From assembly GCA_021806645.1 (NCBI GenBank), contig JAJZQX010000012.1, forward strand, positions 73,764 to 137,763: a stretch of 64,000 bases of DNA, given 5' to 3'. Below the pieces are notes generated by a model. It worked only from the letters and a program-made list of their open reading frames with translations, had not been told where the DNA came from and searched no databases. Numbering within the stretch: position 1 is the first letter of the stretch; every line of letters begins with the position of its first letter. The translations under genes were made by a program, and so were the position numbers. Below, piece by piece: positions 9,405 to 43,607 of this stretch. The stretch is from Myxococcales bacterium. Its GTDB lineage: Bacteria; Myxococcota; Myxococcia; Myxococcales; Anaeromyxobacteraceae.

Positions 9405-9795
9405 CCACCCGAAGTGAAGCCCGTCCCTGCAACGGGGGCTGGTGACGCGTGACCGAACGTGGTCGAGTCAGGTCCGCAGATTGAACCAATGCGCTGGGCC
9501 GCAGCGGAATTGACGCGGATCAAGTTCAGGCGATGGGGCGGACGCGCAAAATTTTCGGGTGCGGCTCTGCGTCGGAGTGGGAGAAGGTATGTCGCCACGG
9601 GCGAGTGTGCCGAAACTGGATCTGTGTCAAATCGCACCAGCTTGGGGCATTGGCCCCACTGCGCCGGATTCCGGCGGCCTCGAGCCGGGCCTGGGTGGCC
9701 GGTCAGTACCCCGGATCGACGACGCCATTTGGCCAGAAAGTCCTTTGGCTTCCATGGCGTCGGCGGGGCGCGCCCCTTGCACTTGGACATCGGTC

Positions 9796-12700
9796 ATGAC
9801 GCTCAGGACCTCCGTCTGCGCACTAGTTGCGTCTCTCTTCGCCTTTGCCCCGTCGGCCGCCCAGGCCGCCTGGGTGGCCTCGCTGTCGGTCGGCGCCGGT
9901 GACTGCGCCACGGTGCCGGGGACCTGCTCCGGCATCGCGCCGGGCAGCGCGGTGACGGTGACCTGCACCGCCAGTCAAGGCAGCTCGATGTATACCGCCA
10001 CGCTGGTCTCGCTCGACGTGACGGCCTCGGCCGGCGCGCTCGGTGCGCCGGTGTTCACCAACGGCAACCCGGCCTCGACCGTCGTGACCTGGACCGCGCC
10101 CGCCTCGGGCAGCGCCACCATCACCTGCCGCGGCGTGGACAAGGTCGCCAACACCACCACCGCCACGGTGAGCGCCCAGGTCGCCGCGGCCGCGGCCGGC
10201 AAGCCTGTCATCTCCGCCTTCACCCGGCCCACCGGGCCGGTCGTCGAGGGCGCGGCGGTTCCACTGTCGGTCACTGCGACCGATCCGGCCGGCGGCACGC
10301 TCAGCTACGCCTGGACCGCCACCGGCGGCACCTTCGACGCGACCAGCGCCGCCGCCGTGACCTGGACCGCCCCGGCCACCGAGGGCTCGGTGGACGTGAC
10401 CGTGGCGGTTTCCAGCGCCACCGGGACCACCACCCGCGTCGAGAACTTCCGGGTGGTCATCTCGGTCTTCCAGGGCGATCTCGCCACCCGGCCGCGGGCG
10501 CCGAACCGCCTGGCGGCGGCCGGTGGCGGCGACATCGCCGTGTCCGACGCCGAGGGGAAGCTCTACCTGTTCACGCGCCGCGGCGAGCTGCGCGGCGCCC
10601 CGGCCGTGGACGCGCCCATCGCGTCGGTGGCCGCCGGCGACGGCACGGTCTTCGCCGCCACCCGCACCGGCGTCATCCTCACCATCGACGCCACCACCGG
10701 CCGCGTGCTGCGCCGCCTGCGGCTCGGCACGGCGTCCGGCCCGATCGCCATGGCCTGGGACTCGGCCCATGGCCTGCTCTGGGTGGTCGAGCAGGGGATG
10801 CCCGGCGCGCGCGCCCTGCTCTCCAATGGCACCGTGGCGCGCGAGATCCGGCAGACGCCGGCCGGCCTGCCGCTCGACTTCGCCGCCGACGTGGCGGTGG
10901 ACGGCGCCGGCAACGTCTGGATCGCCCAGGCGTCCATGGACACCGGTCCGATGGTCCACGCCTTCGACGCCGCCACCGGCGCCTGGGTCCGCTCCATCGT
11001 CAGCAGCGGGAGCGGCCCCGGCCAGGTGCGGCGGGTGGGCGGCCTCGGCTTCGACGCGGCCGGACGGCTCTTCGTCTCCGACGCCTTCAACGGCAACGTC
11101 AAGGTGATGAGCCCGGACGGCACGCCGCTCGGCACGCTCGGCTCCTTCGGCGGCGGCCCCGGCCAGCTCCGCCAGCCGGCCGGCCTCGCGCCCATGGCCA
11201 ACGGTGACGTGCTGGTGGCCAACTTCGACGTGGGCCGGCTCGATCGCTTCGGCGCCGGCCTGCCGCTCCCCACCTGCACGGTGAAGGGGCTGCTCGACAG
11301 CGACTGCGACGGCATGTCCGACGAGTGGGAGCTGGCCCACGGCCTCGACCCGCTCGACCCGTCCGACGCCATGCTCGACGCCGACGGCGACGGCCTCGCC
11401 AACCTCGAGGAGTACGCCCACGGCACCGACCCGGGGAAGGCCGACACCGACGGTGACGGTCTCGCCGACGGTGCCGAGGTCCTGGCCGGCACCAATCCGC
11501 TCAACCCGAGCGACGGCGTGGCCGGCTTGATGGCGGCCGGCCCGGCCGGCGCGGTCCGGCCCGGCGAGATCCACCTCTCCGCCACCGTGTCCGGCCCCGG
11601 CGCCTGCACCCTGGGCTGGAAGCAGGTGGGCGGGCCCCCGGTCGTGCTCCGCGCCACCACCTCGCTGACGCCGTCGTTCATCGCGCGGGCCGCCGCCGTC
11701 TACACGTTCGAGGGGCAGGCCCGGTGCGGCAGCTCGGTGAGCACCCCGTCCCGGGTCGCGATCACCGTCCTCAACGTGGCCCCACGGGCCGCCGCCGACC
11801 GGATGGCGGTGGTGGCCGCGGGCGACCGGCTCGAGCTCTCGGCCGCCGCCTCCAGCGACGCCAACGGCGACGCGCTCCGCTTCGCCTGGGAGGTGGACCA
11901 GTCGCCGGTGGGCGCCAGGGCGGCCATCGCGCCGCGCTCCGCCGAGCTCGGGCTCGGCTACCACCCGTTCCGCGCGGTGGTTCGCGACGCCGCCGGCGCC
12001 GCCGACGCCGTCGAGGTGCCGGTCATGGTGGTGGACGAGCGGCTGGTGGCCCCGACCGCCATCGTGGACGCCTCGGTGCTGGCCGGCGAGGTCGGCCAGC
12101 CGGTGCAGCTGAGCGCGGCCGCCAGCATTGGCCCGGCCATCCGCTGGGAGCAGGAGAGCGGCCCGGCCGCCGCGCTCTCGGATCCCGCCGGCGCCATGCC
12201 CACCTTCCTGCCCCCGGTCGCCGGCCGCTACGTCTTCGCCGCCTACGCGGTGGACGGGCTGGTCTGGTCCGCCCCGGCCCGCGTCGAGGTCTACGTGGCC
12301 GGCGGCGGCACCGCCCTGCCGCAGGCCGCGGTCGCCCCGCTCGCCGCCACCGTCCCCGTCAACACCGCCATCGTGCTCGACGGCTCCGGCAGCCTGGCCG
12401 GCGCCGGTGGCGCCATCACCTGGGCCTGGAAGCAGGTGGCCGGCCCGGCCGCCGCCATCGTGGACGAGGACCGGCCGCTGGCCACCGCGGTCGCCTTCGT
12501 GCCCGGCTGGTACCAGTTCGAGCTGACGGTCAACGAGGCGGGGGTCTCCTCGCTGCCGGTCCGGATCGGCTTCGAGGCCCGTGTCGAGGGCGCGCCCATC
12601 CCGGTGGCCAGGGCGGCCGGCCCGGCCGGCGCCGTCACCGGCGAGCTGGTCCGGCTCGACGGCCGCGCCTCCACCGGCGCCCGCCGCTACCACTGGACGC

Positions 12701-12861
12701 AGGTGGCCGGCCCGTGGGTCGCACTGAAGGCGAGCCAGCAGGCGCCCACCTTCGTGCCCCTGGCCGAGGGGAGCTATCGCTTCGAACTGGAGGTGGACGA
12801 CGGCACGGTGCGCAGCCGCCCGGCCTCGGTCACCGTCCTCGTCAACGGGAAGGGGAACTAG
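9796..12861 (+). CDS. Secreted multidomain protein: Ig-like domains, an NHL-repeat beta-propeller, thrombospondin type-3 (Ca-binding) repeats and four PKD-like domains
   Basis: Signal peptide MTLRTSVCALVASLFAFAPSAAQA. NHL-like blades (VWIAQAS.., RLFVSDAFNGNVKVMSPDGT, GDVLVANFDVGRLDRF). TSP3 repeats (DSDCDGMSDEWE, DADGDGLANLEE, DTDGDGLADGAE). Repeated motifs such as LDGSGS...ITWAWKQVAGPAA. Confidence 0.8.
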   Translation: MTLRTSVCALVASLFAFAPSAAQAAWVASLSVGAGDCATVPGTCSGIAPGSAVTVTCTASQGSSMYTATLVSLDVTASAGALGAPVFTNGNPASTVVTWTAPASGSATITCRGVDKVANTTTATVSAQVAAAAAGKPVISAFTRPTGPVVEGAAVPLSVTATDPAGGTLSYAWTATGGTFDATSAAAVTWTAPATEGSVDVTVAVSSATGTTTRVENFRVVISVFQGDLATRPRAPNRLAAAGGGDIAVSDAEGKLYLFTRRGELRGAPAVDAPIASVAAGDGTVFAATRTGVILTIDATTGRVLRRLRLGTASGPIAMAWDSAHGLLWVVEQGMPGARALLSNGTVAREIRQTPAGLPLDFAADVAVDGAGNVWIAQASMDTGPMVHAFDAATGAWVRSIVSSGSGPGQVRRVGGLGFDAAGRLFVSDAFNGNVKVMSPDGTPLGTLGSFGGGPGQLRQPAGLAPMANGDVLVANFDVGRLDRFGAGLPLPTCTVKGLLDSDCDGMSDEWELAHGLDPLDPSDAMLDADGDGLANLEEYAHGTDPGKADTDGDGLADGAEVLAGTNPLNPSDGVAGLMAAGPAGAVRPGEIHLSATVSGPGACTLGWKQVGGPPVVLRATTSLTPSFIARAAAVYTFEGQARCGSSVSTPSRVAITVLNVAPRAAADRMAVVAAGDRLELSAAASSDANGDALRFAWEVDQSPVGARAAIAPRSAELGLGYHPFRAVVRDAAGAADAVEVPVMVVDERLVAPTAIVDASVLAGEVGQPVQLSAAASIGPAIRWEQESGPAAALSDPAGAMPTFLPPVAGRYVFAAYAVDGLVWSAPARVEVYVAGGGTALPQAAVAPLAATVPVNTAIVLDGSGSLAGAGGAITWAWKQVAGPAAAIVDEDRPLATAVAFVPGWYQFELTVNEAGVSSLPVRIGFEARVEGAPIPVARAAGPAGAVTGELVRLDGRASTGARRYHWTQVAGPWVALKASQQAPTFVPLAEGSYRFELEVDDGTVRSRPASVTVLVNGKGN

Positions 12862-12863
12862 CG

Positions 12864-13976
12864 ATGCGTACCCGCTGGCTCGGAATCCTCGCGGTCCTCT
12901 CCACCGTCGTCCCGGTGGCGGCGCTGGGCGTGGACGCCCCGCACGACGGCTCGGCCACCGTCGGCACCTGCGAGAACTGCCACATGATCCACAACGCGCT
13001 GGGCGGCACGCTGATCAACGCGCCGGACAACAACACCGCCTGCTCGTCGTGCCACAACCCCTTGTCCACCACCCCCAGCGGGGCCCGGCTCGGCCTCCCG
13101 TGGCTCACCGAGGACCAGGCGTTCCCGGGCAAGAGCGGCCAGCAGCACCGCTGGGACGCGCTGGCCGATTCGCCGGCGTTCGGCGCGGCGCAGCCCACCG
13201 ACTCCGGGATGCTGAAGCGGATCAAGGACGGCCGGATCCAGTGCGCCGCCTGCCACGACCCGCACGCCGACGTGAAGGCGTTCGACCCGACCGCGCTGCA
13301 CACCTCGATCGCGCCCGGCGTCGCCACGGCCGTGACCGGTGGCACCACCACCATGACCATGACGCTGACGGCGCCCGCCGCCGCCGCCGTGACCAGGGGG
13401 TACCGGGTCCAGGTGGAAGGCATCTCGGGCGCCCAGTTCCGGCTCGCTATCAGCCACAACGCCAAGACCACCGACGGCGCGCCGATCTGGTGGGTCAACA
13501 ACGGGACCAGCTGGGTTCAAGGTGCGCTCGGAACCGGCACGCAGCTCTGGTCCACCGGCGCGGCCATCGCGCTCGACGACGGGACCAGCGTGCAGGTGAC
13601 CTTCACCGGCACCGCCGCCGTCGGCCAGTTCTGGGACTTCTACGTCTCCTACGCCCACCTGCGGGCCAGCAACGTGGCCGACGCCATGTGCCTGCAGTGC
13701 CACGCCTCGCGCAACCAGACCCACGTCACGGTCGAGGGGCCGGGGAACGGCGTGACCATCTTCAGCCACCCGGTCGGCGAGGCGCTCAACGCCAACGGCA
13801 AGGGGTACGACCGGGCCGCCGCCAACGTGCTCGACGCCAACGGCGCGCTCCAGGCCACCGGCGACGGCAACCCCACCAACGATCTCACGCTGGACGGCGG
13901 CACCACGGTCCGCTGCACCACCTGCCACAACGTCCACAACGCCGACTCCAACTCACTCACCACCGATGCTCGGTAG
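12864..13976 (+). CDS. Pentahaem c-type cytochrome with an OmcS-like N-terminus and an inserted non-haem domain
   Basis: Signal peptide MRTRWLGILAVLSTVVPVAALG. Five CXXCH motifs: CENCH, CSSCH, CAACH, CLQCH, CTTCH. First motif is HDGSATVGTCENCHMIHNALGGTLIN. About 140 aa between haem motifs 3 and 4 contain no Cys. Confidence 0.85.
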   Translation: MRTRWLGILAVLSTVVPVAALGVDAPHDGSATVGTCENCHMIHNALGGTLINAPDNNTACSSCHNPLSTTPSGARLGLPWLTEDQAFPGKSGQQHRWDALADSPAFGAAQPTDSGMLKRIKDGRIQCAACHDPHADVKAFDPTALHTSIAPGVATAVTGGTTTMTMTLTAPAAAAVTRGYRVQVEGISGAQFRLAISHNAKTTDGAPIWWVNNGTSWVQGALGTGTQLWSTGAAIALDDGTSVQVTFTGTAAVGQFWDFYVSYAHLRASNVADAMCLQCHASRNQTHVTVEGPGNGVTIFSHPVGEALNANGKGYDRAAANVLDANGALQATGDGNPTNDLTLDGGTTVRCTTCHNVHNADSNSLTTDAR

Positions 13977-14040
13977 CCCCGGGGCGCACGTGAAGACCAC
14001 TCAGCGCAGCTCCCGCATGGTGAACGACATGGCCGCAAGG

Positions 14041-17000
14041 ATGAACTCCGTGAAGACCCTGGCTCGCGCCGTTGCCGCGGTCGCCGTCGCGTTGCTCGCG
14101 GTGCAGGCGGGGCCGGCGGGGGCGGCCGGCACAGCCGGCAAGAGCTACAACATCTCCTGCGACACCGGCACGACCGCCAACGTGTCGCTCTACAACATCA
14201 CCACGGGCACCCAGTTCAAGGTGCGCTGCAAGATCATCGACCAGGCGACTGGTGCGGGGATTACCGGACTCGTCAGCGGTGACATCACCATCAGGCAGAT
14301 CACGGACGTCACCACCAACACCGCGCTCACCAGCGGCACCGACTACACCGCCGGCAACCTCGTGGAGGTTGGAAGTGGCGTTTACGATTTCTTGCTGACC
14401 ATCAGTTCGGGCGTTGCCACGGGTGACATCCTTGAGATCCAGATGCGCGAGGACGGTGGCAATGAGGTCGACACGGAGCGCCTCTTCGTCACCCAGTATG
14501 TACGCGTTGCAACTGCTGGCGTCGCTGGAAACGCCCGCTACATCGAAGTCCAGCCGACGACCAACGCTGACATCAACACGGCGGCGGGGACCTACACAGT
14601 GCGGGTTCGCTTCATCGATGCGCTGGGCAACTACTTCAATCCCGGCACCTTGACCTGGAGCATCAATCGATGGCGCGACAGCACCGGCGCCACCATCACC
14701 ACCGGCACCCCTTCGGCTGCAGCCTACGACACCACCAACAACTGGTACCTGCTCAGCATCCCCTACAGCACGGCACTGACCAACGGCGACCGACAGTACA
14801 TCAACATCGGCGCCAGGATCGGTAACTACCGGTACCTGGCCGGTTTCGGTCTGACCGCGGTCACCGCCCAGACCAATACGCCGCTCGCCGTGCCAACCTT
14901 CACGACGCCTGGCCTATTTGCTCCGGCCAACACCACCACGGTCGGCAACGGCACCGATCCGGCCGGTGGCACGGTCGGCCCCGGGGGCGCGGCCACCATG
15001 GTGGACGCCTTCACGCTGCAGACCAGCGCCGGCACCGACACGATCACGGCGGCCAGCGTGACGCTCTCGACCGTGAGCGGCGTCGGCCTGGTCGAGATCA
15101 CCAACGACGCCGGCACGACCGTCTACGGTTCGACCAGCAACCCCGCGGCCACGCCGGTCGCCGTTTCGCTCACCACCAGCATCTCCGCCACCACCACGCT
15201 GACGCAGTACAGGGTCCGCGTCACGCCGCTGGCGCATGCCGCCATGCCGGCGGTGCCGGGCGGGACCTACGCGGTGACGGCCACGGTGACCGGGCTCACC
15301 TCGACCAACGGCAAGACCTACGCCGACAGCGGCAGCGGCACGCTCACCATCGACAACCTCTCCCCGGGCGACGTGACCGGCCTCTCGGCCACGCCCGGCA
15401 ATACGCAGCTGGTGGTCAACTGGACCAACCCGGCCACCGACTACGCGCGGACCATGGTCCTGTATCGCGCCACCACCGCCATCAGCGACGTGCCCGGCGA
15501 GGGAGCGACCTACACCGCCCCGGGCACGCTCGGAGCGAGCACCATCGCCTACGTGGGCGGCACGGCCGGCGCGGCCGGCACCACCACCATCACCGGCCTG
15601 ACCAACGGCACGCTCTACAACTTGAAGGTCTTCGTCCAGGATGCCTATGGCAACTGGTCCACGCCGGGCGCCACCACCTCGGGCACGCCGACCGCCCCCG
15701 CCAACACCACCACGGTCGGCAACGGCACCGATCCGGCCGGTGGCACGGTCGGCCCCGGGGGCGCGGCCACCATGGTGGACGCGTTCACGCTGCAGACCAG
15801 CGCCGGCACCGACGCGATCACGGCGGCCAGCGTGACGCTCTCCACCGTGAGCGGCGTCGGCCTCGTCGAGATCACCAACGACGCCGGCACGACCGTCTAC
15901 GGTTCGACCAGCAACCCGGCGGCCACGCCGGTCGCCGTGACGCTCACCACCAACATCTCCGCCACCACCACGCTGACGCAGTACAGGGTCCGCGTCACAC
16001 CCCTGTCGCACGCCGCCATGCCGGCTGTGCCGGGCGGGACGTACGCGGTGACGGCCACGGTGACGGGGCTCACCTCGACCAACGGCAAGACCTACAGCGA
16101 CACGGGAAGCGGCACGCTCACCATCGACAACCTCTCCCCGGGCGACGTGACCGGCCTCTCGGCCACGCCCGGCAATACGCAGCTGGTGGTCAACTGGACC
16201 AACCCGGCCACCGACTACGCGCGGACCATGGTCCTGTATCGCGCCACCACCGCAATCAGCGACGTGCCCGGCGAGGGGGCGACCTACACCGCCCCGGGCA
16301 CGCTCGGAGCGAGCACCATCGCCTACGTGGGCGGCACGGCCGGCGCGGCCGGCACCACCACCATCACCGGCCTGACCAACGGCACCCTCTACAACGTGAA
16401 GGTCTTCGTCCAGGATGCCTATGGCAACTGGTCCACGCCGGGCGCCACCACCTCGGGCACGCCCGCCGTCCCGGTCATCAGCCTGGCCGTCGGCAACGGC
16501 ACCAACCCGGCCAACACGGCGCTGCTCTGCCCGTCGCCGACCGCGCCGACCGGCCCCACCATGCTCGACGCCTTCACGCTGCAGGCCCTGGTGGCCGACG
16601 ACGTGGTGACCCGCATCACGGTCCAGCTCGCCCCGGCGGGCGCCTGGATCAACGTGGCCACCGTGGAAATCACAGACGCCGCGGGCGGCACCACGGTCTA
16701 CGGCAGCGCCATCCCCGGCGGCGACCAGGTCAACGTCTACGTCACCGGCATCGCCCCGACCGTGGCCGCCGGCGCGGTCAGCTACAACGTCCGGATCACC
16801 CCCAAGACCCACGCGGCCATGCCGGCCCCCAACACCGGCCAGCAGTACGCCACCACCGGCACCGTGGTCTCGGTCGCCTCCAACAACCCGCGCACCTACG
16901 GCGACGCCTCCAGCGCCACCGTCACCATCGACAACCTGGCGCCGTCAGAGGTGGTCTGGTCCGGGGTCACCACCGGCGCCACCAACATCCAGCTCAACTG

Positions 17001-20000
17001 GGTCACGGCCACCAACGTGGTGGTGCTGCGCAAGCAGGGCGGGCCGGTCACCGACTCGCCGGTCGAGGGGACCACCTACACCGCCGGCGCCACCATCGGC
17101 GCCAGCACCGTGGCCTGCGCCGGAACCATGGCGCTCTGCAACTCGACCGGCCTGACCGCCGGCACCGCCTACTACTTCAAGGTCTTCACCGCCGACGCCT
17201 GCGTCAACTACTCGCTCGGCGGCCCGGTCGGTCCGCTCTTCGCGGGCGGCCTCAACGAGGGCAGCGCCACCGCGAGCACGCTGCTGCCGGTGGTGGGGAT
17301 CATCAACCCGAAGAACCCGGCCACGGTGACCAGCTCCGGTGCCGGCTTCCGGGTCCAGGTCCGCGCCTTCAGCCGGATGAACGCGGGCGTCGCCCAGCCG
17401 TTCGCCGCCGGTGCCGTCCGGCTCAAGGCGGCCACCCCGGCCCAGCCCTTCGTCGCCACCTGCGACGCGGCCAACTACCCGATCGCGCTGGCGCTCAACG
17501 CCAACTACCCGAACAGCACGGTAGCGGCCACCGACAACCACGGCGTCTACGAGGCCACGGTCACGGTCGCCAAGGGGGCGTACACGTTGCGTGCCTGCGC
17601 CACCAACGCCAGCGGCACCGTCCTGTCGGGTCCGGTCGGCATCACCGTCAACGACGGCTCGGCCGGCTCGCCCAGGGGCGACGGCAACCTGCTGGTCCGC
17701 GACAACGGCGCGCAGCTCTGCAACGACTGCCACGCCATCGCCACCCACGCCTCGGAGACGGTCGGCAACAAGTACGGCTCCTGGTACGCGGCCTGCCGCG
17801 ACTGCCACACGCCGCACAGCACCACCAACGTCGAGCTGATCCGCAAGCAGATCACGCCGCCCGGCTACCGCGGCCAGCAGCCGCCCAGGGACGTGGTCTT
17901 CTACGACAGGTCCACCGGCTTCGCCGCGACCGCGTACGCGAATTCCGGCGGCACCGGCGTCTGCCAGGTCTGCCACACCGCCACCACCTACTACCGGAGC
18001 GACGGAACGCTGGCCGGCACCCACAACCCCAACCAGGCCTGCACCGCCTGCCATGCCCACGAAAAGGGGCTCAAGGCCTCGTGCACCACGTGCCACGGCG
18101 ACAAGACCGGGACCTACGCGGCCATCTCCGGGGCCGACACCAACGCCAACGCCGCGCCGCCGACAGCGGCCGACAAGGTGACCACCACCGGCGTGAAGGT
18201 GGGCGCGCACCAGGCCCACGTCAACGGCAACGGCACCGTCGCCACCTACCGGACCAACCCGATCGGCTGCGCCGACTGCCACCCGGTCCCGAACTCGCAC
18301 AACGGCACCACCGACGCGGCCTGGAGCGTGCTGGCCACCAACACCATCGTCAACGGGACGAGCCTCGCCGTCGCCCCGACGCCGGCCGCCGGGCTTGGCG
18401 CCTACAACGCCACCTGGGAGGCGACGCCGACCTGCACCAACGCCTGCCACGGCGCCAACCTCCCCTCCAACGCCGTGAAGCCGGCGCCGAGTTGGACCGC
18501 GGCGGGTGGCCTGACCTGTGCCTCCTGCCACGGCGCTCCGCCTCCGCTCTCGGCCACCGCCAACCAGAACCACCCGCAGAACACCACCTGCGCCACCTGC
18601 CACGGGGCCGGGTACGTCAACGGCGGGCCGCTGGCGGCTGCCGCCAAGTCCACGCACGTCAACGGCACGCTCGACCGGATCACCGCCGGCTGCACCTCCT
18701 GCCATGGTGAGCTGGGCGCGCCGGGCGTGACGCTGACGGCGAACACGGTGAAGGCGGCGCCGGGCGCCTCGGGGAGCGGCACCAACTCCTTCGACACCAC
18801 CGGCCTCGCCACCGGCAACGCCATCGGCGCGCACAAGGCCCACCTGGCCGGTTCCACGGGCACGCCGCGCTGGCGCTCGGCCGTCATCGCCTGCAACGAG
18901 TGCCACCTGTTGCCGCCGAGCGACACCGACATGGCCCACGCCACCGGCGCCGGCACGGGTGGGGCGCGCGCCACCCTGACCTGGACCGGCGGCATCGCGC
19001 AGAGCACGGCCTTCGAGACCAAGACCGCCTCGTACGCGCAGCCGACCTGCACCAACGTCTATTGCCACAACCCCAAGAGCACCGACACGGCGGCGACGAC
19101 CAAGACGCCGGCCTGGAACGGGGCCACCACCCTGGCGCAGTGCGGTTCCTGCCACGGGCTGCCCCCCACCACCGGGACCGCCCACCCGACCGGCGTGACG
19201 GAGTGCGCCAGTTGCCACCCGGGCTACAGCGCCACCATGCCGACCAGCACCAGCACCATCGCGGCGGTGAACACGCTGGCCCACATCAACGGCCAGCTCG
19301 ACGGCGGCGGCGACTGCACCGGCTGCCACGCCAGCGCGCAGGGGCCCCGGCGCCCCATCGTTCCAGAGTTCGCGCTGGCCTGGTCGCACAAGCGCTCCGC
19401 CGGCGGCGCGGTCACCAAGTGGGACTGCGTGGTCTGCCACATGGAAGGGGACCCGACGACCGGGAACACCACGGCGGTCCACAAGGACGGCTTCGTCAAC
19501 CTGAGAGACCCGGACACCGGGGCGAACATCAAGGGCGTGACCTTTGCCGGGACGCCGGGCAGCTACACCGCCACGGCCACCGACGCGACCTTCACCACGT
19601 TCAGCCGCAACCTGGGCAGCGCCACGCTGGAGCCGGCGGTCCAGGCCATCATGATCAACCAGTGCCTCAAGTGCCACGACGCCAACGGCGCGGCCAGCAC
19701 GCTGGCGCGGGTGCCGACCACCGGGACGGCGGAGAAGCCCTTCGGCACCACCATCGCCGGCGCGGCCTACACCGGAGCCGGCGTGACCGCCAACGGAGTG
19801 ACCGGCGGTGTCGCCGACGTCAACGCCGCCTTCGCGACGACCAACTCCTCGTACCACCCGGTGACCGGGAAGCAGAACAACTGGTACGCGAAGGACGTTC
19901 GCATGGTTGCGCCCTGGAACATGGGGGTGACCACCAGGGCCGGGACCGTCAACCTGACCACGTGGGGCCCACTACTCTCCTGCTGGGACTGCCACTCCGA

Positions 20001-20571
20001 CCCCGCCGACACCGGCGTCATCACCAGGACGGTCACGGCCCACGGCGCGGCACAGACGCTTCGCGGCACTCCGACGTATAGCGGAACGCTCACGTCGCGA
20101 CCGGCGAGTTCCACGACCTACCCGGTCACCCGGCCGGCAACGGCGGTGACGCTCTGCATCGTCTGCCACGATCGCTACGACACGTGCGGTGGGGCGGGCA
20201 CCAACAACTGCTCCAGCGCAACGCACGGCGCGGGGTCGGCGGAGTCCAGCAACCTCAACAGCGGCATGACGGGGACCATGCAGTTCGCCTGCAACTGGTG
20301 TCACAGCAGCGGAAGCCTCACGGCCGTGGTGCGGCCGATTCGAGGGCAGGACGTGCACGGCGTGAACACCGTGGCGACCGGCGGCTCGGCCAAGTCGGGC
20401 AGGTGGGCGACGGCCAACCCGAAGCCGTATGCATTCATCCGCAACACCTCCCTCCTGGGTGACCACTCACCCCGCAGTATCCTCGGGACGACGTACTCGC
20501 CCGGATGCGACATGGTGACCAGTCCCTGCAGCCAGGGCTTCAAGACCTACACGGTCGGCGGCACCTACTAG
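14041..20571 (+). CDS. Giant (~2176 aa) secreted multihaem cytochrome. The N-terminal ~1200 aa are Ig/FN3-like repeats; the C-terminal ~1000 aa carry 18 CXXCH motifs plus one CX3CH and one CX4CH.
   Basis: Signal peptide MNSVKTLARAVAAVAVALLAVQAGPAGA (starts at 14017 or 14029 are also possible). Three units each combine a beta-sandwich with an FN3-like domain. Two modules resemble the Geobacter CxxxxCH...CXXCH domain (PTCTNACHG...LTCASCHGAPP and PTCTNVYCHN...AQCGSCHGLPP). Confidence 0.85.
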   Translation: MNSVKTLARAVAAVAVALLAVQAGPAGAAGTAGKSYNISCDTGTTANVSLYNITTGTQFKVRCKIIDQATGAGITGLVSGDITIRQITDVTTNTALTSGTDYTAGNLVEVGSGVYDFLLTISSGVATGDILEIQMREDGGNEVDTERLFVTQYVRVATAGVAGNARYIEVQPTTNADINTAAGTYTVRVRFIDALGNYFNPGTLTWSINRWRDSTGATITTGTPSAAAYDTTNNWYLLSIPYSTALTNGDRQYINIGARIGNYRYLAGFGLTAVTAQTNTPLAVPTFTTPGLFAPANTTTVGNGTDPAGGTVGPGGAATMVDAFTLQTSAGTDTITAASVTLSTVSGVGLVEITNDAGTTVYGSTSNPAATPVAVSLTTSISATTTLTQYRVRVTPLAHAAMPAVPGGTYAVTATVTGLTSTNGKTYADSGSGTLTIDNLSPGDVTGLSATPGNTQLVVNWTNPATDYARTMVLYRATTAISDVPGEGATYTAPGTLGASTIAYVGGTAGAAGTTTITGLTNGTLYNLKVFVQDAYGNWSTPGATTSGTPTAPANTTTVGNGTDPAGGTVGPGGAATMVDAFTLQTSAGTDAITAASVTLSTVSGVGLVEITNDAGTTVYGSTSNPAATPVAVTLTTNISATTTLTQYRVRVTPLSHAAMPAVPGGTYAVTATVTGLTSTNGKTYSDTGSGTLTIDNLSPGDVTGLSATPGNTQLVVNWTNPATDYARTMVLYRATTAISDVPGEGATYTAPGTLGASTIAYVGGTAGAAGTTTITGLTNGTLYNVKVFVQDAYGNWSTPGATTSGTPAVPVISLAVGNGTNPANTALLCPSPTAPTGPTMLDAFTLQALVADDVVTRITVQLAPAGAWINVATVEITDAAGGTTVYGSAIPGGDQVNVYVTGIAPTVAAGAVSYNVRITPKTHAAMPAPNTGQQYATTGTVVSVASNNPRTYGDASSATVTIDNLAPSEVVWSGVTTGATNIQLNWVTATNVVVLRKQGGPVTDSPVEGTTYTAGATIGASTVACAGTMALCNSTGLTAGTAYYFKVFTADACVNYSLGGPVGPLFAGGLNEGSATASTLLPVVGIINPKNPATVTSSGAGFRVQVRAFSRMNAGVAQPFAAGAVRLKAATPAQPFVATCDAANYPIALALNANYPNSTVAATDNHGVYEATVTVAKGAYTLRACATNASGTVLSGPVGITVNDGSAGSPRGDGNLLVRDNGAQLCNDCHAIATHASETVGNKYGSWYAACRDCHTPHSTTNVELIRKQITPPGYRGQQPPRDVVFYDRSTGFAATAYANSGGTGVCQVCHTATTYYRSDGTLAGTHNPNQACTACHAHEKGLKASCTTCHGDKTGTYAAISGADTNANAAPPTAADKVTTTGVKVGAHQAHVNGNGTVATYRTNPIGCADCHPVPNSHNGTTDAAWSVLATNTIVNGTSLAVAPTPAAGLGAYNATWEATPTCTNACHGANLPSNAVKPAPSWTAAGGLTCASCHGAPPPLSATANQNHPQNTTCATCHGAGYVNGGPLAAAAKSTHVNGTLDRITAGCTSCHGELGAPGVTLTANTVKAAPGASGSGTNSFDTTGLATGNAIGAHKAHLAGSTGTPRWRSAVIACNECHLLPPSDTDMAHATGAGTGGARATLTWTGGIAQSTAFETKTASYAQPTCTNVYCHNPKSTDTAATTKTPAWNGATTLAQCGSCHGLPPTTGTAHPTGVTECASCHPGYSATMPTSTSTIAAVNTLAHINGQLDGGGDCTGCHASAQGPRRPIVPEFALAWSHKRSAGGAVTKWDCVVCHMEGDPTTGNTTAVHKDGFVNLRDPDTGANIKGVTFAGTPGSYTATATDATFTTFSRNLGSATLEPAVQAIMINQCLKCHDANGAASTLARVPTTGTAEKPFGTTIAGAAYTGAGVTANGVTGGVADVNAAFATTNSSYHPVTGKQNNWYAKDVRMVAPWNMGVTTRAGTVNLTTWGPLLSCWDCHSDPADTGVITRTVTAHGAAQTLRGTPTYSGTLTSRPASSTTYPVTRPATAVTLCIVCHDRYDTCGGAGTNNCSSATHGAGSAESSNLNSGMTGTMQFACNWCHSSGSLTAVVRPIRGQDVHGVNTVATGGSAKSGRWATANPKPYAFIRNTSLLGDHSPRSILGTTYSPGCDMVTSPCSQGFKTYTVGGTY
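14926..16473 (+). repeat. Near-identical tandem duplication (2 x 774 bp, 2 x 258 aa) inside the giant cytochrome gene. A third, diverged copy follows at about 16474-17230.
   Basis: Copy 1 (14926-15699) and copy 2 (15700-16473) both begin gccaacaccaccacggtcggcaacggcaccgatccggccggtggc. By eye, about 7 aa differ out of 258. Confidence 0.85.
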
Positions 20572-20592: not shown

Positions 20593-21894
20593 ATGAACGC
20601 CCCCGCGTCGCACCGGGCTCCAATGCCACGGTGCGGCGCGCCCGCTCCAATGGCCGACCCGTCCATGCCGACGCCCGAAGCACCAGCAGCGCCCGCGCCG
20701 CGCGTTCGCCCCCCACCGAGCCTGGGGCGCCGGGTCTTCAGCGTGGTTTCCTCGCCGCGGCTGGCCATCGCGCTGCTCATCGTCGTGCTGGCCTGCTGCG
20801 TGGTGGGCGTCACAGTCTTCACGCCGGAGCCGGCTTGGCGGCTCATCTTCAACACGCTCTGGTTCAACGGCCTGCTGGTGCTGCTGGCGCTCAGCTCGGG
20901 CGTCACCTTCCTGGCCCGCACCTGGGGCCGGAAGCTCACGCTGGTCTCCGTGGGTATGATCCTGTTCCACGTGAGCTTCATGAGCCTGCTGGGCGGCGTG
21001 GTCTTCAACAGCTTGTTCCACTTCAAGGGCGTGCTGCGGCTCACGGAAGGCGAGATCCTGCCCAACGGCGATCCCGCCAGCTACGACACCGTCGATGCTG
21101 GGCGCTTCTTCGACTTCACCCGCCTCCGCGGCGAGACCACCCTGGTCAAGATGCACCGCGGCTACAAGGTGGACGGGCAGGACAAGCGGGCCGCCTACGA
21201 GATCGCCGTCGGCGAGGGGTCGTCGAAGACGACGGGAATCATCTACATGACGCAGAACCTGGACTACCGCGGCGTGCGGTACCTGGTCTCCAAGGAGGGG
21301 TACTCGATCGGCGTCGTCCTCCACGACAAGCAGGGACGCGAGCTGTACGCGGCCATGGTCCCGCTGCAGAGCCTGCAGCGGGGCGAGAACGCCCACCTCT
21401 ACACCACCGGCTCCGCGCTGGCGCCAGGCGCCTTTCCGTTCCCGCCGCCGCCGGACTCCGCCGCGCTCCTGCTCCAGGTGGGGTACGTGCCCGATCAGCG
21501 GAAGGAGCGGGCCGGGCAGGTCGAGTTCTTCACCTGGCCGGTGAGCCAGGCGGTCGCTGGCCACGACGGTGCCAGGGGCGCGGGGCACGCGTCCGGCCAG
21601 GCCGCGTCGATCGGGGGCGGCAAGGACACGGAGCCTGCCGCCTCGGGCAAGGTGGCCGTCGGCGGCACCTTCGACGCCGGCGACTACAAGCTCGAGGCGA
21701 GAGAGGTGCGGTACTGGGTCGGCATGACGGTACGACGCGACCCCGGTCTGACCGTCATCCTCTCCAGCCTCTGGGCGGGGCTGGCAGGCATGACCATGAC
21801 CTTCATCGGACGGATCGTGCAAGACTCGAAGCGAGGCAAGCGCGAGGCGAGCAGCTCTGAACCGGGCGCGACAGCGCCGAAGGGGGTCCCATGA
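20593..21894 (+). CDS. resB: System II cytochrome c biogenesis protein ResB/Ccs1 (CcsB)
   Basis: VFSVVSSPRLAIALLIVVLACCVVG...WFNGLLVLLALS...LFHFKGVLRLTEGE.. is a typical ResB N-terminus, and there is a C-terminal TM segment. The stop overlaps the ccsA ATG (ATGA). The start could be any of several Met codons between 20593 and 20665. Confidence 0.8.
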   Translation: MNAPASHRAPMPRCGAPAPMADPSMPTPEAPAAPAPRVRPPPSLGRRVFSVVSSPRLAIALLIVVLACCVVGVTVFTPEPAWRLIFNTLWFNGLLVLLALSSGVTFLARTWGRKLTLVSVGMILFHVSFMSLLGGVVFNSLFHFKGVLRLTEGEILPNGDPASYDTVDAGRFFDFTRLRGETTLVKMHRGYKVDGQDKRAAYEIAVGEGSSKTTGIIYMTQNLDYRGVRYLVSKEGYSIGVVLHDKQGRELYAAMVPLQSLQRGENAHLYTTGSALAPGAFPFPPPPDSAALLLQVGYVPDQRKERAGQVEFFTWPVSQAVAGHDGARGAGHASGQAASIGGGKDTEPAASGKVAVGGTFDAGDYKLEAREVRYWVGMTVRRDPGLTVILSSLWAGLAGMTMTFIGRIVQDSKRGKREASSSEPGATAPKGVP

Positions 21895-22715
21895 ACGTCG
21901 AGCAGGTGCTGTTCTGGTGCGCCGTCGGATTCTACGGGCTGAGCGCGTTCGCCTACGTCTTCGGCTTCATCGCCGAGAACGAGAAGCTGCTCTCTGGGGG
22001 GCTGGCCACGGCCGTGCTCGGGTTCGCCGCCCACCTGACCAGCATCGCCCTCCGCTGGGTGACGAGCAGCGTGACGCCGTTCATCACCATCTCCGAGTCG
22101 CTCGCCCTCGGGACCCTCATGGCGATGGCCCTCTTCCTCATCCTCCAGGCCTCGAACAGGAAGGTCCGGCCGCTCGGTGTCTTCGTGCTGCCGGTGGTCT
22201 TCGTGCTCATCGGGTGGGCCGGCACGCTGCGGGCGGCCTCCGGATCCCAGCTCGCCCCGGCGCTGCAGAGCGGCTGGCTCTGGGCGCACATCGTCGGCGC
22301 CACCATCGGCTTCAGCGCGGTGCTGATGGCGGCGGGGCTGGCGATGATGTTCCTGCTCAGGGAGAACCGGTCGGGGGGGATCTACGACCGGCTGCCGTCG
22401 CCGGCCGACCTCGACCGGCTGGCCTACCGGTTCGTCGCCGCCGGTTTCATCATGTACGGCCTCATGATCGTCACCGGGGCGCTCTGGGCCGACCAGGCCA
22501 AGGGCAGCTACTGGAACTGGGACCCGGTCGAGGTCTGGTCGCTGGTCTCCTGGCTCATCTACGGCATCTACCTCCACCTGCGCATCACCATGGGCTGGCG
22601 CGGGCGGAGGCTGGCCTGGTACGCGCTGGCGGCGGTGGCGGTGATGATCGTCAGCTACTGGGGCATCCCGTTCTCGGTCGAGACCTTCCACAAGGGCTTC
22701 CGCGTCGAGCACTAG
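21891..22715 (+). CDS. ccsA: System II cytochrome c biogenesis haem lyase subunit CcsA/ResC
   Basis: Polytopic membrane protein with the W-rich haem-handling motif (WADQAKGSYWNWDPVEVWS) and conserved His residues. Confidence 0.9.
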   Translation: MNVEQVLFWCAVGFYGLSAFAYVFGFIAENEKLLSGGLATAVLGFAAHLTSIALRWVTSSVTPFITISESLALGTLMAMALFLILQASNRKVRPLGVFVLPVVFVLIGWAGTLRAASGSQLAPALQSGWLWAHIVGATIGFSAVLMAAGLAMMFLLRENRSGGIYDRLPSPADLDRLAYRFVAAGFIMYGLMIVTGALWADQAKGSYWNWDPVEVWSLVSWLIYGIYLHLRITMGWRGRRLAWYALAAVAVMIVSYWGIPFSVETFHKGFRVEH

Positions 22716-22728: not shown

Positions 22729-24075
22729 ATGAACCGCCACCTCACGACGCTCGCCGCCGCGTGTGCCGCCTGGCTGTCGCTCTCGGGCTGCCGCTGCGGG
22801 AAGCCGGAGCCGGTGCGCGGCGCGCCGCCGCTCGCAGCCGCAGCCGCCGTCGCCGCCGTGGCCGTGGCCGACAAGCCCGCCGTGCTCGCAACCCTGCCGG
22901 ACGAGCGGGAGCGGGAGTTCGTCTTCGCCGAGCGCGGGGGCGGCGTCGCCTGGGCCGATGAGAGGGGCGGCCGCTTCCAGGTGGTCCACGACGGCCGCGC
23001 CGGCAAGACCTACGACGCCGTGGGGCCGATCGCCCTCAGCCCGGACGGGCGGCGCTGCGCCCACGGGGCGCAGGCGGACGGCCAGTGGCGAATGGTGGTA
23101 GACGGCGTGGAAGGGCAGGGGTTCGACGAGGTCCAGTCGCCGGTCTTCAGCCCCGACGGAGCGCACCTCGCCTACCAGGCCAGGGCCGGGGAGCGGTGGC
23201 ACCTGGTCGTGGACACGACGGTGGGCCCTGGGACCAGGAGCCGCCTCCTCGGGCCGGAGTTCGGCGCCGACTCCTCCAGGATCGCCCTCATCGACGACGC
23301 CGACGACCAGGGTTTCGGCCGGCTGGTGGTGAGCGACCTGGACTTCAAGGGGCAGACGGTGGTCGAGGCGCGCGCCTCCGAGCTGCTGGTGAACGGGGAC
23401 CGGACCCAAGTCGCAGCCATCGGCGCGAGCGGCGGGAAGCAACGGGTGCTGACCTTCGCCTTCGACCGGCCCGGCCAGGTGAGGCGAGGGCCGGACTTCG
23501 ACGCCGTCTCCCGCCTCGCCTTCGGGCCAGGCGGCCGCTCGCTGGCCTACCTGGCGGAGCGGGCCGGCCAGCGCATGGTGGTGCTGGACGGGAAAGAGGA
23601 GACGGTGCCTCCGGGTGAGCTGTTCGGGCCGCTGGTGGTCCGTCCCGACGGCAAGGCGGTGGGGATCTTCCGGCTGGACGGTGACGCCGTGCGGCTCCAC
23701 CAAGCCTTCGCCGGGGCTGGGCCGGACGAGGTGACCCCAGGGGGAGGTGAGGAGCTCACCTACTCTCCCGGCGGCTTGCACGCCTACGCCTCCAGCCGCA
23801 GGGGACGGCAGCTCGTCGTGGTCGGCGGCAAGGACGGACCGCCCTTCGACCGGGTGGTGTCGCCGTCGTTCAGCCCCGACGGCAGGTTCCTCGTCTACCG
23901 CGCCCGCCAGGACGGGCGGCGCTTCGTGGTGGTGGCGGACCCCAGCGGCAAGACGACCCGCCAGCTGCCGACCTACGAGCAGGTCTTTCCGGTCCGGTTC
24001 ACGGCTGACGGCAAGTCGGTGGCCTACGGGGTGAAGGACGGCAAGAGCCTGCGCTGGGTCGTCGAGCCGCTCTGA
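22729..24075 (+). CDS. Lipoprotein with PD40/WD40-like (TolB-type) beta-propeller repeats
   Basis: Lipobox LSLSGC. Recurrent FSPDG/LSPDG...AY motifs (LSPDGRRCAHGA, FSPDGAHLAYQA, FSPDGRFLVYRA, FTADGKSVAYGV). Confidence 0.7.
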   Translation: MNRHLTTLAAACAAWLSLSGCRCGKPEPVRGAPPLAAAAAVAAVAVADKPAVLATLPDEREREFVFAERGGGVAWADERGGRFQVVHDGRAGKTYDAVGPIALSPDGRRCAHGAQADGQWRMVVDGVEGQGFDEVQSPVFSPDGAHLAYQARAGERWHLVVDTTVGPGTRSRLLGPEFGADSSRIALIDDADDQGFGRLVVSDLDFKGQTVVEARASELLVNGDRTQVAAIGASGGKQRVLTFAFDRPGQVRRGPDFDAVSRLAFGPGGRSLAYLAERAGQRMVVLDGKEETVPPGELFGPLVVRPDGKAVGIFRLDGDAVRLHQAFAGAGPDEVTPGGGEELTYSPGGLHAYASSRRGRQLVVVGGKDGPPFDRVVSPSFSPDGRFLVYRARQDGRRFVVVADPSGKTTRQLPTYEQVFPVRFTADGKSVAYGVKDGKSLRWVVEPL

Positions 24076-24133
24076 TCCGTCGAAGGTCGCTCCCTGGGCC
24101 AGTCCATACCCAATCGAGGTCCCTCAAACGCAA

Positions 24134-24168
24134 CTTTGGGCGCCCAAAGTGGATTTCGGGGGGGGGGG
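24134..24168 (+). repeat. Perfect 16-bp palindrome (CTTTGGGCGCCCAAAG, 24134-24149) followed by a G11 homopolymer (24158-24168)
   Basis: Read directly from the sequence. It lies between the lipoprotein gene and the first TA cassette. The palindrome could form a 6-bp stem with a 4-nt loop and act as a terminator. Confidence 0.7.
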
Positions 24169-24221
24169 CTGGTTTTCCACGCCGGATTGGCGAAGCAGCT
24201 CCGCGCGGATAGTATTGCCAC

Positions 24222-24524
24222 ATGGGTGCGCATCTCGACCTGGATCGCGACCAGCTCGCGGCGTTCTGTCGGCGGCACCACGTGCGCCGGCTGGCACTGT
24301 TCGGCTCCGTGCTGCGCGACGACTTCGGTCCGGACAGCGACATCGACGTGCTGGTGGAGTTCGAGCCCAACCACGTGCCGGGCTTCATCGCGCTTCACGG
24401 CCTTGAAGAGGAACTGGGGCAGTTCATGGCAGGGCACCCTGTCGATCTGGTCACCGCCGGGGCGCTCAACCACCGCATCCGTGATCGAGTCCTGGCGTCG
24501 GCCGAGGTCCAGTTTGCAGCATGA
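24222..24524 (+). CDS. mntA: MntA-type nucleotidyltransferase antitoxin
   Basis: LALFGSVLRDDFGPDSDIDVLVEF is the GS-X10-DxD minimal nucleotidyltransferase signature. Confidence 0.75.
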   Translation: MGAHLDLDRDQLAAFCRRHHVRRLALFGSVLRDDFGPDSDIDVLVEFEPNHVPGFIALHGLEEELGQFMAGHPVDLVTAGALNHRIRDRVLASAEVQFAA

Positions 24525-24670
24525 TGACGGCGTCTACCTCGGCGGCCATCATCGGCATGAGGCACCGGGTCGTCCACGATTACATGAGCGTGGACCAGGA
24601 GGTGGTCTGGAAGACGGCCACGCAGGAGATGGCGCCGCTCCTGGCGATGTTCCAGCGCCTCCGCGGGTGA
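24521..24670 (+). pseudogene. hepT: N-terminally truncated HepT (DUF86) toxin remnant of 49 codons
   Basis: My own translation is MMTASTSAAIIGMRHRVVHDYMSVDQEVVWKTATQEMAPLLAMFQRLRG. It retains the Rx4HxY motif (RHRVVHDY) but lacks the ~60-70 N-terminal residues seen in the intact copy at 25952. ATGA overlap with mntA. Confidence 0.55.
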
Positions 24671-24898
24671 GTGTGATCGCCAGGTAGGGCACCGTGCGGC
24701 ATCCTGACCGCTTATCCCCCGTCCACCTGAGCACGCCCACCCTCGCTGATGGCGGTACCCCGGGGTCCTGAGCACAGACGGTGATGGACGGGGAGCCGCG
24801 CCCCTCGATAAGGGTGGCAGCGGCGAGGGGGCAGGCGCTCCCGGGCTCGCTGCGGCGCCACCGTCTCGGTCCAGACAGCGGGATGGTGCGGCCCTCGC

Positions 24899-24917
24899 TT
24901 GACGTACGTACGTACGC
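24899..24917 (+). promoter_or_regulatory. TTGACG -35-like hexamer fused to an (ACGT)n 14-bp perfect palindrome (CGTACGTACGTACG). Candidate operator/promoter of the phd-vapC cassette.
   Basis: Read directly from the sequence. It ends 18 nt upstream of the antitoxin ATG at 24935. Confidence 0.4.
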
Positions 24918-43603: not shown

Positions 43604-43607
43604 GTGG

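Follow-up and report, generated by a model that had tools for sequence, protein, structure and literature searches.

A giant stalked multihaem cytochrome in a conserved five-gene cassette of a Myxococcales bacterium

What might a bacterium do with a single polypeptide that joins a long string of cofactor-free beta-sandwich domains to an array of twenty haem attachment sites? The question is raised by a gene on the plus strand of a 64,000-nucleotide (nt) stretch of DNA, hereafter the window, from a Myxococcales bacterium of the Anaeromyxobacteraceae (assembly GCA_021806645.1, contig JAJZQX010000012.1, positions 73,764 to 137,763). An initial annotation made from the sequence alone described the product as a cytochrome of ~2176 amino acids (aa) in which immunoglobulin (Ig)-like and fibronectin type III (FN3) repeats precede 18 CXXCH motifs and two variant motifs, and called the function of this architecture uncharacterised. 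The latter statement holds, as the family is annotated and noted in the literature without an assigned role. The reading preferred here, to which a probability of about 0.6 is given, is that of a Sec-exported cytochrome of ~229 kDa which, together with a pentahaem cytochrome and an NHL/TSP3/PKD protein encoded directly upstream, makes up the outer section of a route for extracellular electron transfer. Genomes of soil Myxococcota and of relatives of Geobacter are rich in giant multihaem cytochromes, which are expressed in iron-reducing soils, and no member of the family discussed here has had its structure solved or a role assigned to it. The locus by itself reveals no new kind of system. It is a clean and complete example, in which a domain map and a count of haems and ligands point to electron transfer, and the giant cytochrome is new in the sense that nothing retrieved exceeds 64% identity to it, its family being known, annotated and uncharacterised. 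The most useful new point is that the gene belongs to a conserved cassette of five, which has a System II cytochrome c synthase of its own and names the likely partners of the giant cytochrome.

The open reading frame (ORF) is uninterrupted up to its stop at 20571. Its longest form begins at ATG 13966, and further in-frame ATGs lie at 14017, 14029 and 14041. Translation from 14041 gives one intact product of the predicted 2176 aa, with no frameshift splitting it, and translation from 14029 gives 2180 aa. The start at 14029 is more likely because its Met (MAARMNSVKT...) is common to the N-termini of the three relatives P0002, P0003, and P0004; the choice amounts to four residues of the signal peptide, and residues are numbered here from ATG 14041. 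The GC content at third codon positions (GC3) of the gene is 0.93, matching adjacent genes, and the long ORFs opposite the gene are the usual by-product of ~70% GC. The calculated mass is ~216 kDa for the mature apoprotein and ~229 kDa with 20 haems. An N-terminal signal-like peptide is the sole hydrophobic segment, and no lipobox, C-terminal anchor or MYXO-CTERM-like sorting signal is visible in the sequence. The domain order is signal peptide, variable head, three units of beta-sandwich plus FN3, Ig-like domain, four-haem domain, two five-haem modules, and six-haem C-terminus. Stalk boundaries come from a self-comparison of the whole protein done in chunks, DNA repeats from a separate repeat search, and the four-part division of the haem region from the pattern of sharing among 184 retrieved relatives.

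14029..20571, plus strand: giant cytochrome gene, recognised by its intact ORF, its motif count and an N-terminal signal-like peptide
14131..14922, plus strand: variable N-terminal head (aa 31-294), rare among relatives
14923..17250, plus strand: three stalk modules (aa 295-552, 553-810, 811-1070) of 258-260 aa each, from the self-comparison
17251..17640, plus strand: Ig-like beta-sandwich domain (aa 1071-1200) immediately before the haem region, all-beta in the AlphaFold2 model
17641..18081, plus strand: first haem domain (aa 1201-1347), in which an alignment of 32 homologues shows 4 CXXCH and 4 conserved non-motif His
18082..19314, plus strand: two five-haem TIGR01904/PF09698 modules (aa 1348-1550, 1551-1758), from hidden Markov model scores and module alignment
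19315..20568, plus strand: C-terminal six-haem domain (aa 1759-2176), with 6 CXXCH, aligned with 13 homologues

The count of haem motifs in the initial annotation was accurate. Eighteen CXXCH motifs are accompanied by CTNACH (CX3CH, aa 1465) and CTNVYCH (CX4CH, aa 1670), and all 20 are confined to aa 1227-2088; shuffled versions of the protein contain 0.03 CXXCH on average and never more than 1. The first haem domain is shared with 32 of the 184 relatives, and the C-terminal six-haem domain is found in 13. The central five-haem modules, of ~205 aa each, occur in more than 110 relatives and more than 600 copies. The two copies in the window (aa 1344-1561 versus 1547-1769) are ~33% identical, and the protein scores above the cutoffs of both family models, reaching 47.4 bits against a cutoff of 27 for TIGR01904 (three stretches) and 27.9 bits against 21.7 for PF09698 (two stretches), which bears out the earlier proposal of two modules of the Geobacter type, (H..H)-CxxCH-PTCTNxxCH-CxSCHGxPP-CxxCH. 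The giant cytochrome thus belongs to the CxxxxCH/CxxCH (TIGR01904/PF09698) family. Each module consists of CxxCHG, VGAHxxH, CxxCH, CX3/4CH, CxxCHGxPP and CxxCH. Across 541 module copies from 111 proteins, the five haem motifs (CxxCHG, CxxCH, CxxxYCH, CxxCHGxPP, CxxCH) are 95-100% conserved, as are five non-motif His (the VGAHxxH pair, one after motif 2, and one each before and after motif 5), and the columns of the variant motif are conserved in 99-100%. Module A of the window reads CTNACH...W...CASCHGAPP and module B CTNVYCH...W...CGSCHGLPP, and the CX3CH of the former aligns with the CX4CH of the family, being shorter by one residue. The variant motifs are therefore a family signature rather than chance occurrences, and their conservation in the alignment argues for haem occupancy at these sites.

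The nature of the haems can be approached through the spare histidines. The region aa 1201-2176 contains 41 His, 20 of which lie in haem motifs, and 20 of the 21 others are conserved in relatives: His 1236, 1259, 1328, and 1340 in the first haem domain (30-31 of 32 sequences), His 1390, 1393, 1420, 1511, and 1539 in module A with five counterparts in module B, and His 1783, 1814, 1939, 2001, 2062, and 2106 in the C-terminal domain (13-14 of 14 sequences). Neither CXXCK nor another known catalytic-haem motif is present in the giant cytochrome, nor is there an obvious open site. One spare conserved His per haem, taken together with these two negatives, suggests 20 low-spin bis-His haems, and hence points to electron transfer rather than catalysis.

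This conclusion has to be weighed against the possibility that the protein is a multihaem enzyme, for example a reductase of a soluble substrate, with a catalytic C-terminal domain. The C-terminal ~420 aa carry only 6 haems, have long haem-free stretches and contain the strongly conserved motifs SSYHPV.GKQNN and RDPD, all of which would favour this view, and a search of the PDB with the family profile returned weak matches to NrfA and to octahaem nitrite reductases. The matches are, however, short, of 20-40 bits and confined to generic CXXCH regions, each haem motif can be paired with a conserved His that might be its distal ligand, and the motif of a catalytic haem is missing, which makes an enzymatic role very improbable. 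The six-haem domain matches no specific Pfam or NCBIfam model. Its last residues (aa 2156-2176, window 20506-20568) comprise a conserved Cys2156/Cys2163 pair and an aromatic end, Y..GG.Y, both found in homologues with this domain; this end may serve in docking or sorting.

In contrast to the haem region, the N-terminal ~1200 residues contain no haem motif. They were initially taken to lack Cys altogether, which is incorrect: eight Cys are present (positions 40, 63, 830, 1026, 1033, 1054, 1141, 1186), none of them in a haem motif. Each of the three stalk modules is composed of a ~165-aa beta-sandwich followed by an FN3 domain. Modules 1 and 2 are 97% identical as protein, and module 3 is ~43% identical. 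In the DNA, the first two modules form a tandem duplication with a spacing of 774 nt and 97% identity, so that a recent origin by tandem duplication is indicated by the sequence; Tandem Repeats Finder, with a longest period of 500, reported no repeat, and the 774-nt duplication came from the other repeat search. A duplication of this length and identity in a short-read assembly also means that the copy number of the modules has to be treated with some care.

The FN3 domains score 46.1 bits against a cutoff of 25 with Pfam PF00041, and the ~165-aa domain that precedes each of them has no Pfam match. An AlphaFold2 model of aa 31-1200 has a mean predicted local distance difference test (pLDDT) score of 77, in which aa 295-1200 score mostly above 90 and are wholly beta. 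Foldseek comparison of this stalk model with the PDB returned tandem Ig/FN3 arrays at E-values from 6e-13 to 1e-7, among them contactin-2 (6e-13), the titin/MyBP-C filament, a mastigoneme, fibronectin and alpha-2-macroglobulin. According to the model, aa 295-1200 are a string of Ig/FN3 beads. The beta-sandwich/FN3 description in the initial annotation is thereby correct for aa 295-1200 and does not extend to the head (aa 31-294), for which AlphaFold2 gave pLDDT values below 50 and no fold. The head is present in 5 of the 184 relatives, all of them cytochromes, and the closest relatives, P0002, P0003, and P0004, bear a different one.

The distribution of the stalk module is broader than that of the haem region. 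In proteins without any haem motif it was found in 72 copies, and in cytochromes in 33. Some of its non-cytochrome carriers, which are named as coming from Vicinamibacterales, Gracilibacteria, and Niyogibacteria, bear dockerin (PF00404) or Flg_new_2 (PF18998) domains, which argues that the module is an extracellular spacer. Each module contains a TP..H..MP...G motif (aa 396-401, 654-659, and 921-926; window 15226-15243, 16000-16017, and 16801-16818), whose residues H399/M402, H657/M660 and H924/M927 include three of the only four His in aa 1-1200. Conservation of the motif is 80% or more both in the 72 non-cytochrome copies and in the 33 cytochrome copies, and it may represent a candidate metal-binding or structural site. 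N-x-S/T sequons are not clearly enriched in the stalk (21 observed versus 15.6 +/- 3.4 in shuffles).

A search with the whole protein retrieved only three relatives of comparable architecture: P0002, with 61% identity over 86% of the query, P0003 (3300 aa), with 64% over 60%, and P0004 (2870 aa), with 50% over 66%. All remaining relatives share parts only, and the family is therefore best regarded as an assortment of modules that have been shuffled. For the haem region, 233 relatives were retrieved at E < 1e-5, those that bear a name being mostly named after the CxxxxCH/CxxCH family, and the nearest haem regions, those of P0067 and P0068 (60-61% identity), lack a stalk. Relatives are named in their sources either as CxxxxCH/CxxCH domain-containing or as fibronectin type III domain-containing proteins. 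To follow the fusion itself, 1.84 billion cluster representatives were compared with the junction of the Ig-like and first haem domains (aa 1071-1347); 654 of them matched at E <= 1e-3, 220 at E <= 1e-10, and 74 at E <= 1e-30. Many of these matches span all 277 residues and lie internally in proteins of 1000-3800 aa. The stalk-then-haem design is thus widespread, and the layout is less unusual than had been assumed, the more so as fusions of multihaem and FN3 domains have been noted before (PMC6199725).

The gene lies within a run of co-directional genes, of which the first five constitute the conserved cassette.

9796..12861, plus strand: NHL/TSP3/PKD protein of 1021 aa (Pfam K319L-like_PKD 1.2e-28, TSP3_bac 8.6e-19, PKD_4, NHL)
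12864..13976, plus strand: pentahaem c-type cytochrome of 370 aa (5 CXXCH; Paired_CXXCH_1 1.2e-11)
14029..20571, plus strand: giant cytochrome
20593..21894, plus strand: divergent ResB-like protein, the CcsB component of a System II cytochrome c synthase (PF05140, 28.8 bits)
21891..22715, plus strand: CcsA-type haem-handling membrane protein (PF01578, 1.2e-37)
22729..24075, plus strand: PD40 (TolB-like) beta-propeller protein with a lipoprotein-type N-terminus (LSGC; PF07676, 7.9e-09)

The start of the NHL/TSP3/PKD protein, the first gene of the cassette, was placed at the Met that opens a signal-like peptide (MTLRTSVCALVASLFAFAPSAAQA). The protein is presumed to be an extracellular Ca-binding scaffold, and its TSP3 repeats are similar to the ones in CglD and MtsD, which are adhesion proteins of myxobacteria. 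The pentahaem cytochrome also has a signal-like peptide, contains a beta-rich insert of ~150 aa between haems 3 and 4, and has no match in a sequence search of the PDB. The ResB-like protein matches no NCBIfam model, and CcsA reaches 178.5 bits with TIGR03144, just below the cutoff of 187.6. From the NHL gene onward, the gaps between genes are 2, ~52-64, 21, -4 and 13 nt, the ResB-like gene and the start of ccsA sharing 4 nt and the PD40 gene following ccsA after 13 nt. A promoter and terminator scan revealed no terminator-like site between the cassette genes and nothing else meaningful. Since the gaps are short, no terminator-like site intervenes and the gene order is conserved in other loci, the NHL/TSP3/PKD, pentahaem, and giant genes are likely co-transcribed, as the initial annotation had proposed in calling them one operon; the unit is larger than envisaged there, the private ResB/CcsA pair having been missed.

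The complete order NHL/PKD, 350-382-aa cytochrome, giant cytochrome, ResB, CcsA recurs in four loci, designated L001 (giant P0003), L002 (P0004), L003 (P0009, from an Archangiaceae metagenome-assembled genome, MAG) and L011 (P0063, from an Anaeromyxobacteraceae MAG), and the cassette is partial on the short contigs L004 and L012 and on the contig of P0194. The 350-382-aa cytochrome lies directly upstream of the giant gene in all seven. This order is kept although the giants are only 50-64% identical to that of the window or share parts alone with it. Orthologues of the NHL/TSP3/PKD protein are 84% (L004), 74% (L001), 50% (L002), 39% (L011) and 38% (L003) identical. In L001, conservation extends to the genes described below that lie upstream (those for a multihaem protein, a cytochrome b, a peptidase, a kinase and a regulator), and a toxin-antitoxin pair and an extra small ORF are inserted in its cassette. 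The pair in question, of a PhdYeFM-type antitoxin and a PIN-domain protein, occupies L001 20097-20704 and suggests that the cassette region tolerates insertions.

ResB orthologues with 53-77% identity are encoded after the giant gene in L002 and L003, and next to the kinase in L005. In L001, L011, and L010, the position is taken by another ccsBA lineage, with CcsA 31-35% identical and an extra ORF of ~170-240 aa between the genes. The occurrence of two ccsBA lineages at the same cassette position indicates that the link between a giant stalked cytochrome and a private synthase has been kept across lineages. In L005 (531-6647), the orthologues of the kinase (81%), ResB (77%), CcsA (85%), and PD40 (65%) are contiguous and the NHL/pentahaem/giant trio is absent between them, which marks the trio as an insertable or losable block; a different cytochrome of 3114 aa lies downstream (9791-19135). 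Among the related loci, only L005 keeps the PD40 gene.

How could these proteins work together? In the preferred reading, the giant chain would be exported unfolded by Sec and receive its haems in the periplasm at 20 sites, the ResB/CcsA pair encoded directly downstream being the most likely enzyme of attachment. The C-terminal 976 residues would constitute an electron-transfer chain with a 4-haem entry, two 5-haem modules, and a 6-haem end, and the N-terminal ~1170 residues a cofactor-free string of ~10 beta-sandwich domains. Such a stalk cannot carry electrons, and the haem end must therefore itself touch the electron donor; haems held at a distance from the cell by a stalk would receive no electrons. 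The original idea of a stalk presenting a haem array is borne out as to the stalk-plus-array architecture, and the stalk is better seen as a tether, spacer or adhesin than as a conductor: a device of adjustable length by which the haem array would be attached to a surface, a partner or the extracellular matrix. With its exchangeable head and variable number of modules, the stalk could tether or aim the assembly, and both the recent 774-nt duplication and the head differences among relatives are counted as features of surface proteins. The putative location is the cell surface, where the haem end would contact the pentahaem cytochrome and the NHL/TSP3/PKD scaffold or other matrix cytochromes. 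The route may be controlled by a kinase/response-regulator pair and fed by a multihaem and cytochrome b pair resembling a quinol oxidase, all encoded upstream, and electrons would then presumably flow from this pair towards the outside.

3567-4607, plus strand: multihaem cytochrome with a C-terminal membrane segment, 91% identical to a gene of L001
from ~4624, plus strand: ORF matching the Ni_hydr_CYTB gene of L001 by position (the pair spans 3567-5140)
between the cytochrome b ORF and the kinase gene, plus strand: M56/M48 peptidase, from the neighbourhood annotation
6883-8754, plus strand: dCache/HAMP histidine kinase, from the neighbourhood annotation
ending at 9404, plus strand: LuxR/GerE-type response regulator, identified from its own sequence and from the equivalent place in L001, which holds a Response_reg plus GerE gene

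The first two of these genes resemble an inner-membrane quinol:cytochrome oxidoreductase, which could feed the cassette.

Several observations weigh against this reading. In Pfam and NCBIfam scans, the cassette showed no gene for type II secretion or for an outer-membrane porin, and no lipid anchor. Neither single-sequence nor profile searches assigned any PDB sequence to the family of the giant cytochrome. The AlphaFold2 model of the haem region (aa 1201-2176), built from a 49-sequence alignment, has a mean pLDDT of 48.5, too low to support any claim on haem packing or chain geometry or to give meaningful matches in a fold search. Moreover, the absence of the trio from L005 implies that the CcsBA pair is not strictly tied to the giant cytochrome, and two stalkless relatives, P0067 and the Anaeromyxobacter sp. 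Fw109-5 protein P0148, have no cassette neighbours at all. A more far-reaching version of the same mechanism would make the cassette a device for extracellular electron transfer that is complete in itself and needs no porin, in Myxococcota and in neighbouring phyla. The private synthase would then mature a cytochrome of more than 200 kDa as the giant chain emerges from Sec, the scaffold and the pentahaem cytochrome would dock the haem end at the cell surface, and the exchangeable head and length-variable stalk would select and hold an electron partner, the His-x-x-Met-Pro sites possibly binding metal. As a whole, this extension appears doubtful.

The missing export genes also give reason to consider a periplasmic protein, that is, an electron store or a periplasm-spanning wire whose 20 haems would relay electrons between an inner-membrane quinol oxidase and outer-membrane partners and whose beta-sandwich part would anchor to peptidoglycan or to PD40/NHL propeller proteins. 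A cassette without secretion system, porin or lipid anchor is what such a protein would lead one to expect, a PD40 (TolB-like) lipoprotein gene does follow ccsA, and the very large multihaem cytochromes of Anaeromyxobacter have been proposed to act as electron capacitors (PMC2330069). We nevertheless consider it unlikely, given that the stalk module is shared with extracellular proteins bearing dockerin or Flg_new_2 domains, that the TSP3 and PKD domains of the neighbouring protein are typical of extracellular proteins, and that ~10 beta-sandwiches plus a 20-haem region would probably measure several periplasm widths (compare PMC11492766). Another alternative is a protein that is mainly an adhesin or a matrix component. 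Its beta-sandwich array would be the working part, attaching to the cell surface, to other cells or to minerals or polysaccharides, and the haem region would be a redox-active accessory, contributing for instance to a conductive matrix by hopping among many tethered copies instead of building a defined conduit. The variable head, the duplicated modules, the frequency of the stalk module in non-cytochrome surface proteins, the likeness of the neighbour's TSP3 repeats to CglD and MtsD, and the presence of glycosyltransferase genes nearby in the window and of PMT-type genes beside the cassette in relatives all agree with it. What the cassette retains, however, are cytochrome partners and a haem lyase, not adhesion or export genes, and the parts conserved in the giant protein are the stalk-to-haem junction and the haem domains, not the head. 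A primarily adhesive role is improbable on these grounds, and it overlaps with a tethered electron-transfer protein at the surface without excluding it.

A separate issue is why the cassette should carry its own haem lyase. In Wolinella succinogenes, NrfI serves CXXCK and CcsA1 serves CX15CH, and by analogy the ResB/CcsA pair might be a specialised lyase needed for the CX3CH and CX4CH sites. The pair is divergent, with CcsA below the TIGR03144 cutoff and ResB at 28.8 bits, and is conserved beside giants with variant motifs, as this explanation would predict. It is contradicted by P0009, which has 16 CXXCH and no CX3CH or CX4CH and yet is followed by ResB and CcsA proteins 53% and 68% identical to those of the window, and by the CX4CH-rich P0067 and P0148, which have no adjacent ccsBA. 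Furthermore, CX4CH sites are matured by general systems elsewhere, as exemplified by Desulfovibrio cytochrome c3. A dedication of the pair to the variant sites is thus distinctly unlikely and, on the strength of the P0009 locus, where an orthologous pair is kept beside a CXXCH-only protein, has been largely rejected.

How does the giant cytochrome compare with systems already described? With the TIGR01904/PF09698 family of Geobacter, Anaeromyxobacter, and other Myxococcota, it shares the same module of five motifs and five His. Many family members, of ~1070-1650 aa, consist of haem modules only (P0067, 1477 aa; P0148, 1645 aa), whereas the protein of the window has in addition a ~1170-aa stalk, a 4-haem entry domain and a 6-haem C-terminus, and CX3CH in place of the family CX4CH at one site. 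Single-chain "wire" cytochromes have been predicted in Desulfuromonadia, for example a 27-haem protein of 130.7 kDa in Geobacter metallireducens (PMC11492766). These also have many closely spaced motifs and are predicted to be extracellular, to exceed the periplasm, and to be encoded outside porin-cytochrome operons; the likeness is one of description, and the text of that paper makes no mention of fibronectin, NHL or ResB. The OmcS, OmcE, and OmcZ nanowires and their archaeal relatives have the same presumed task of extracellular electron transport over tens of nm through stacked bis-His haems. They differ in being filaments of small subunits with 4-8 haems, whereas here 20 haems reside on one chain with a non-conducting stalk. 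Sequence searches gave no indication that the giant cytochrome is related to these subunits: a PDB search with the whole protein returned nothing below E 0.05 and no match to nanowire subunits at E <= 1, and OmcS and OmcZ were not among the matches; the family profile yielded a single filament-like match, 8e5g_A, annotated as "c-type cytochrome" (E 1.9e-4), besides weak and motif-driven matches to MtrF, UndA, NrfA, and other multihaem proteins. A porin-cytochrome conduit of the MtrCAB/Pcc type is likewise not indicated, as no gene of the cassette matches a Pfam or NCBIfam porin family.

The accessory genes have parallels as well. NHL propellers are encoded in the outer-membrane cytochrome clusters DFE_448-451 and DFE_461-465 of Desulfovibrio ferrophilus (PMC5815863) and, together with cytochromes, in the Uet cluster of Tenderia and Gallionella (PMC10734462), and have been proposed to stabilise the cytochrome complex (PMC5815863, PMC10734462). 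The resemblance concerns gene content, and differences exist: the NHL protein of the window (~1020 aa) bears extra TSP3 and PKD domains, and the cassette has its own ResB/CcsA pair and lacks a peptidyl-prolyl isomerase (PPIase) and a porin. ResB/ResC pairs of Geobacter are co-transcribed with multihaem cytochromes and have been suggested to serve those nearby (PMC2700814). Compared with System II of Geobacter and Wolinella succinogenes, the same arrangement of an extra pair beside large cytochromes is found here, with no tie to the type of motif. Finally, genes combining multihaem and FN3 domains have been detected in soil metatranscriptomes dominated by Anaeromyxobacter and Geobacter, both of which are among the Fe(III)-reducing genera to which these genes were assigned, and their expression shifts with the crystallinity of Fe minerals (Wilmoth et al. 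2018, PMC6199725). The domain combination is that of the giant cytochrome, and neither architecture nor gene context is described in that paper.

Some further genes recur around the cassette. A glycosyltransferase of the PMT/PMT_2 family (GT-C) and an ORF of ~230-250 aa lie beside it in four related loci, the PMT gene being located at L001 23564-24979, L011 18662-19918, L010 5242-6516 and 13096-14403 of the P0194 contig. The window cassette itself has no adjoining PMT gene, and glycosyltransferase genes are present near it. The recurring PMT genes hint that the Thr/Ser-rich giant proteins are glycosylated. In the window, genes for B12-binding radical SAM proteins are found a few kb past the end of the cassette (28195-29745, 33762-35321), and in L003 (18084-19430) and L011 (22064-25898) such genes follow it directly. 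Just past the PD40 gene (window 24100-27000), small ORFs of nucleotidyltransferase type can be seen in the raw translation (e.g., LFGSVLRDDFGPDSDIDVLVEF).

The window contains a second cytochrome cluster on the minus strand, at 40689-56881.

40689-42704, minus strand: second multihaem protein of this cluster
43608-45572 and 45335-47761, minus strand: two large ORFs with no Pfam match
48282-49046, minus strand: small cytochrome
49288-50430, minus strand: NHL beta-propeller
50343-52187, minus strand: SurA-like PPIase
51992-53836, minus strand: multihaem protein with 8 paired-CXXCH stretches
53985-56881: divergent histidine kinase and sigma-54 response regulator

An NHL propeller and a PPIase are features that this second cluster shares with the Uet cluster (PMC10734462).

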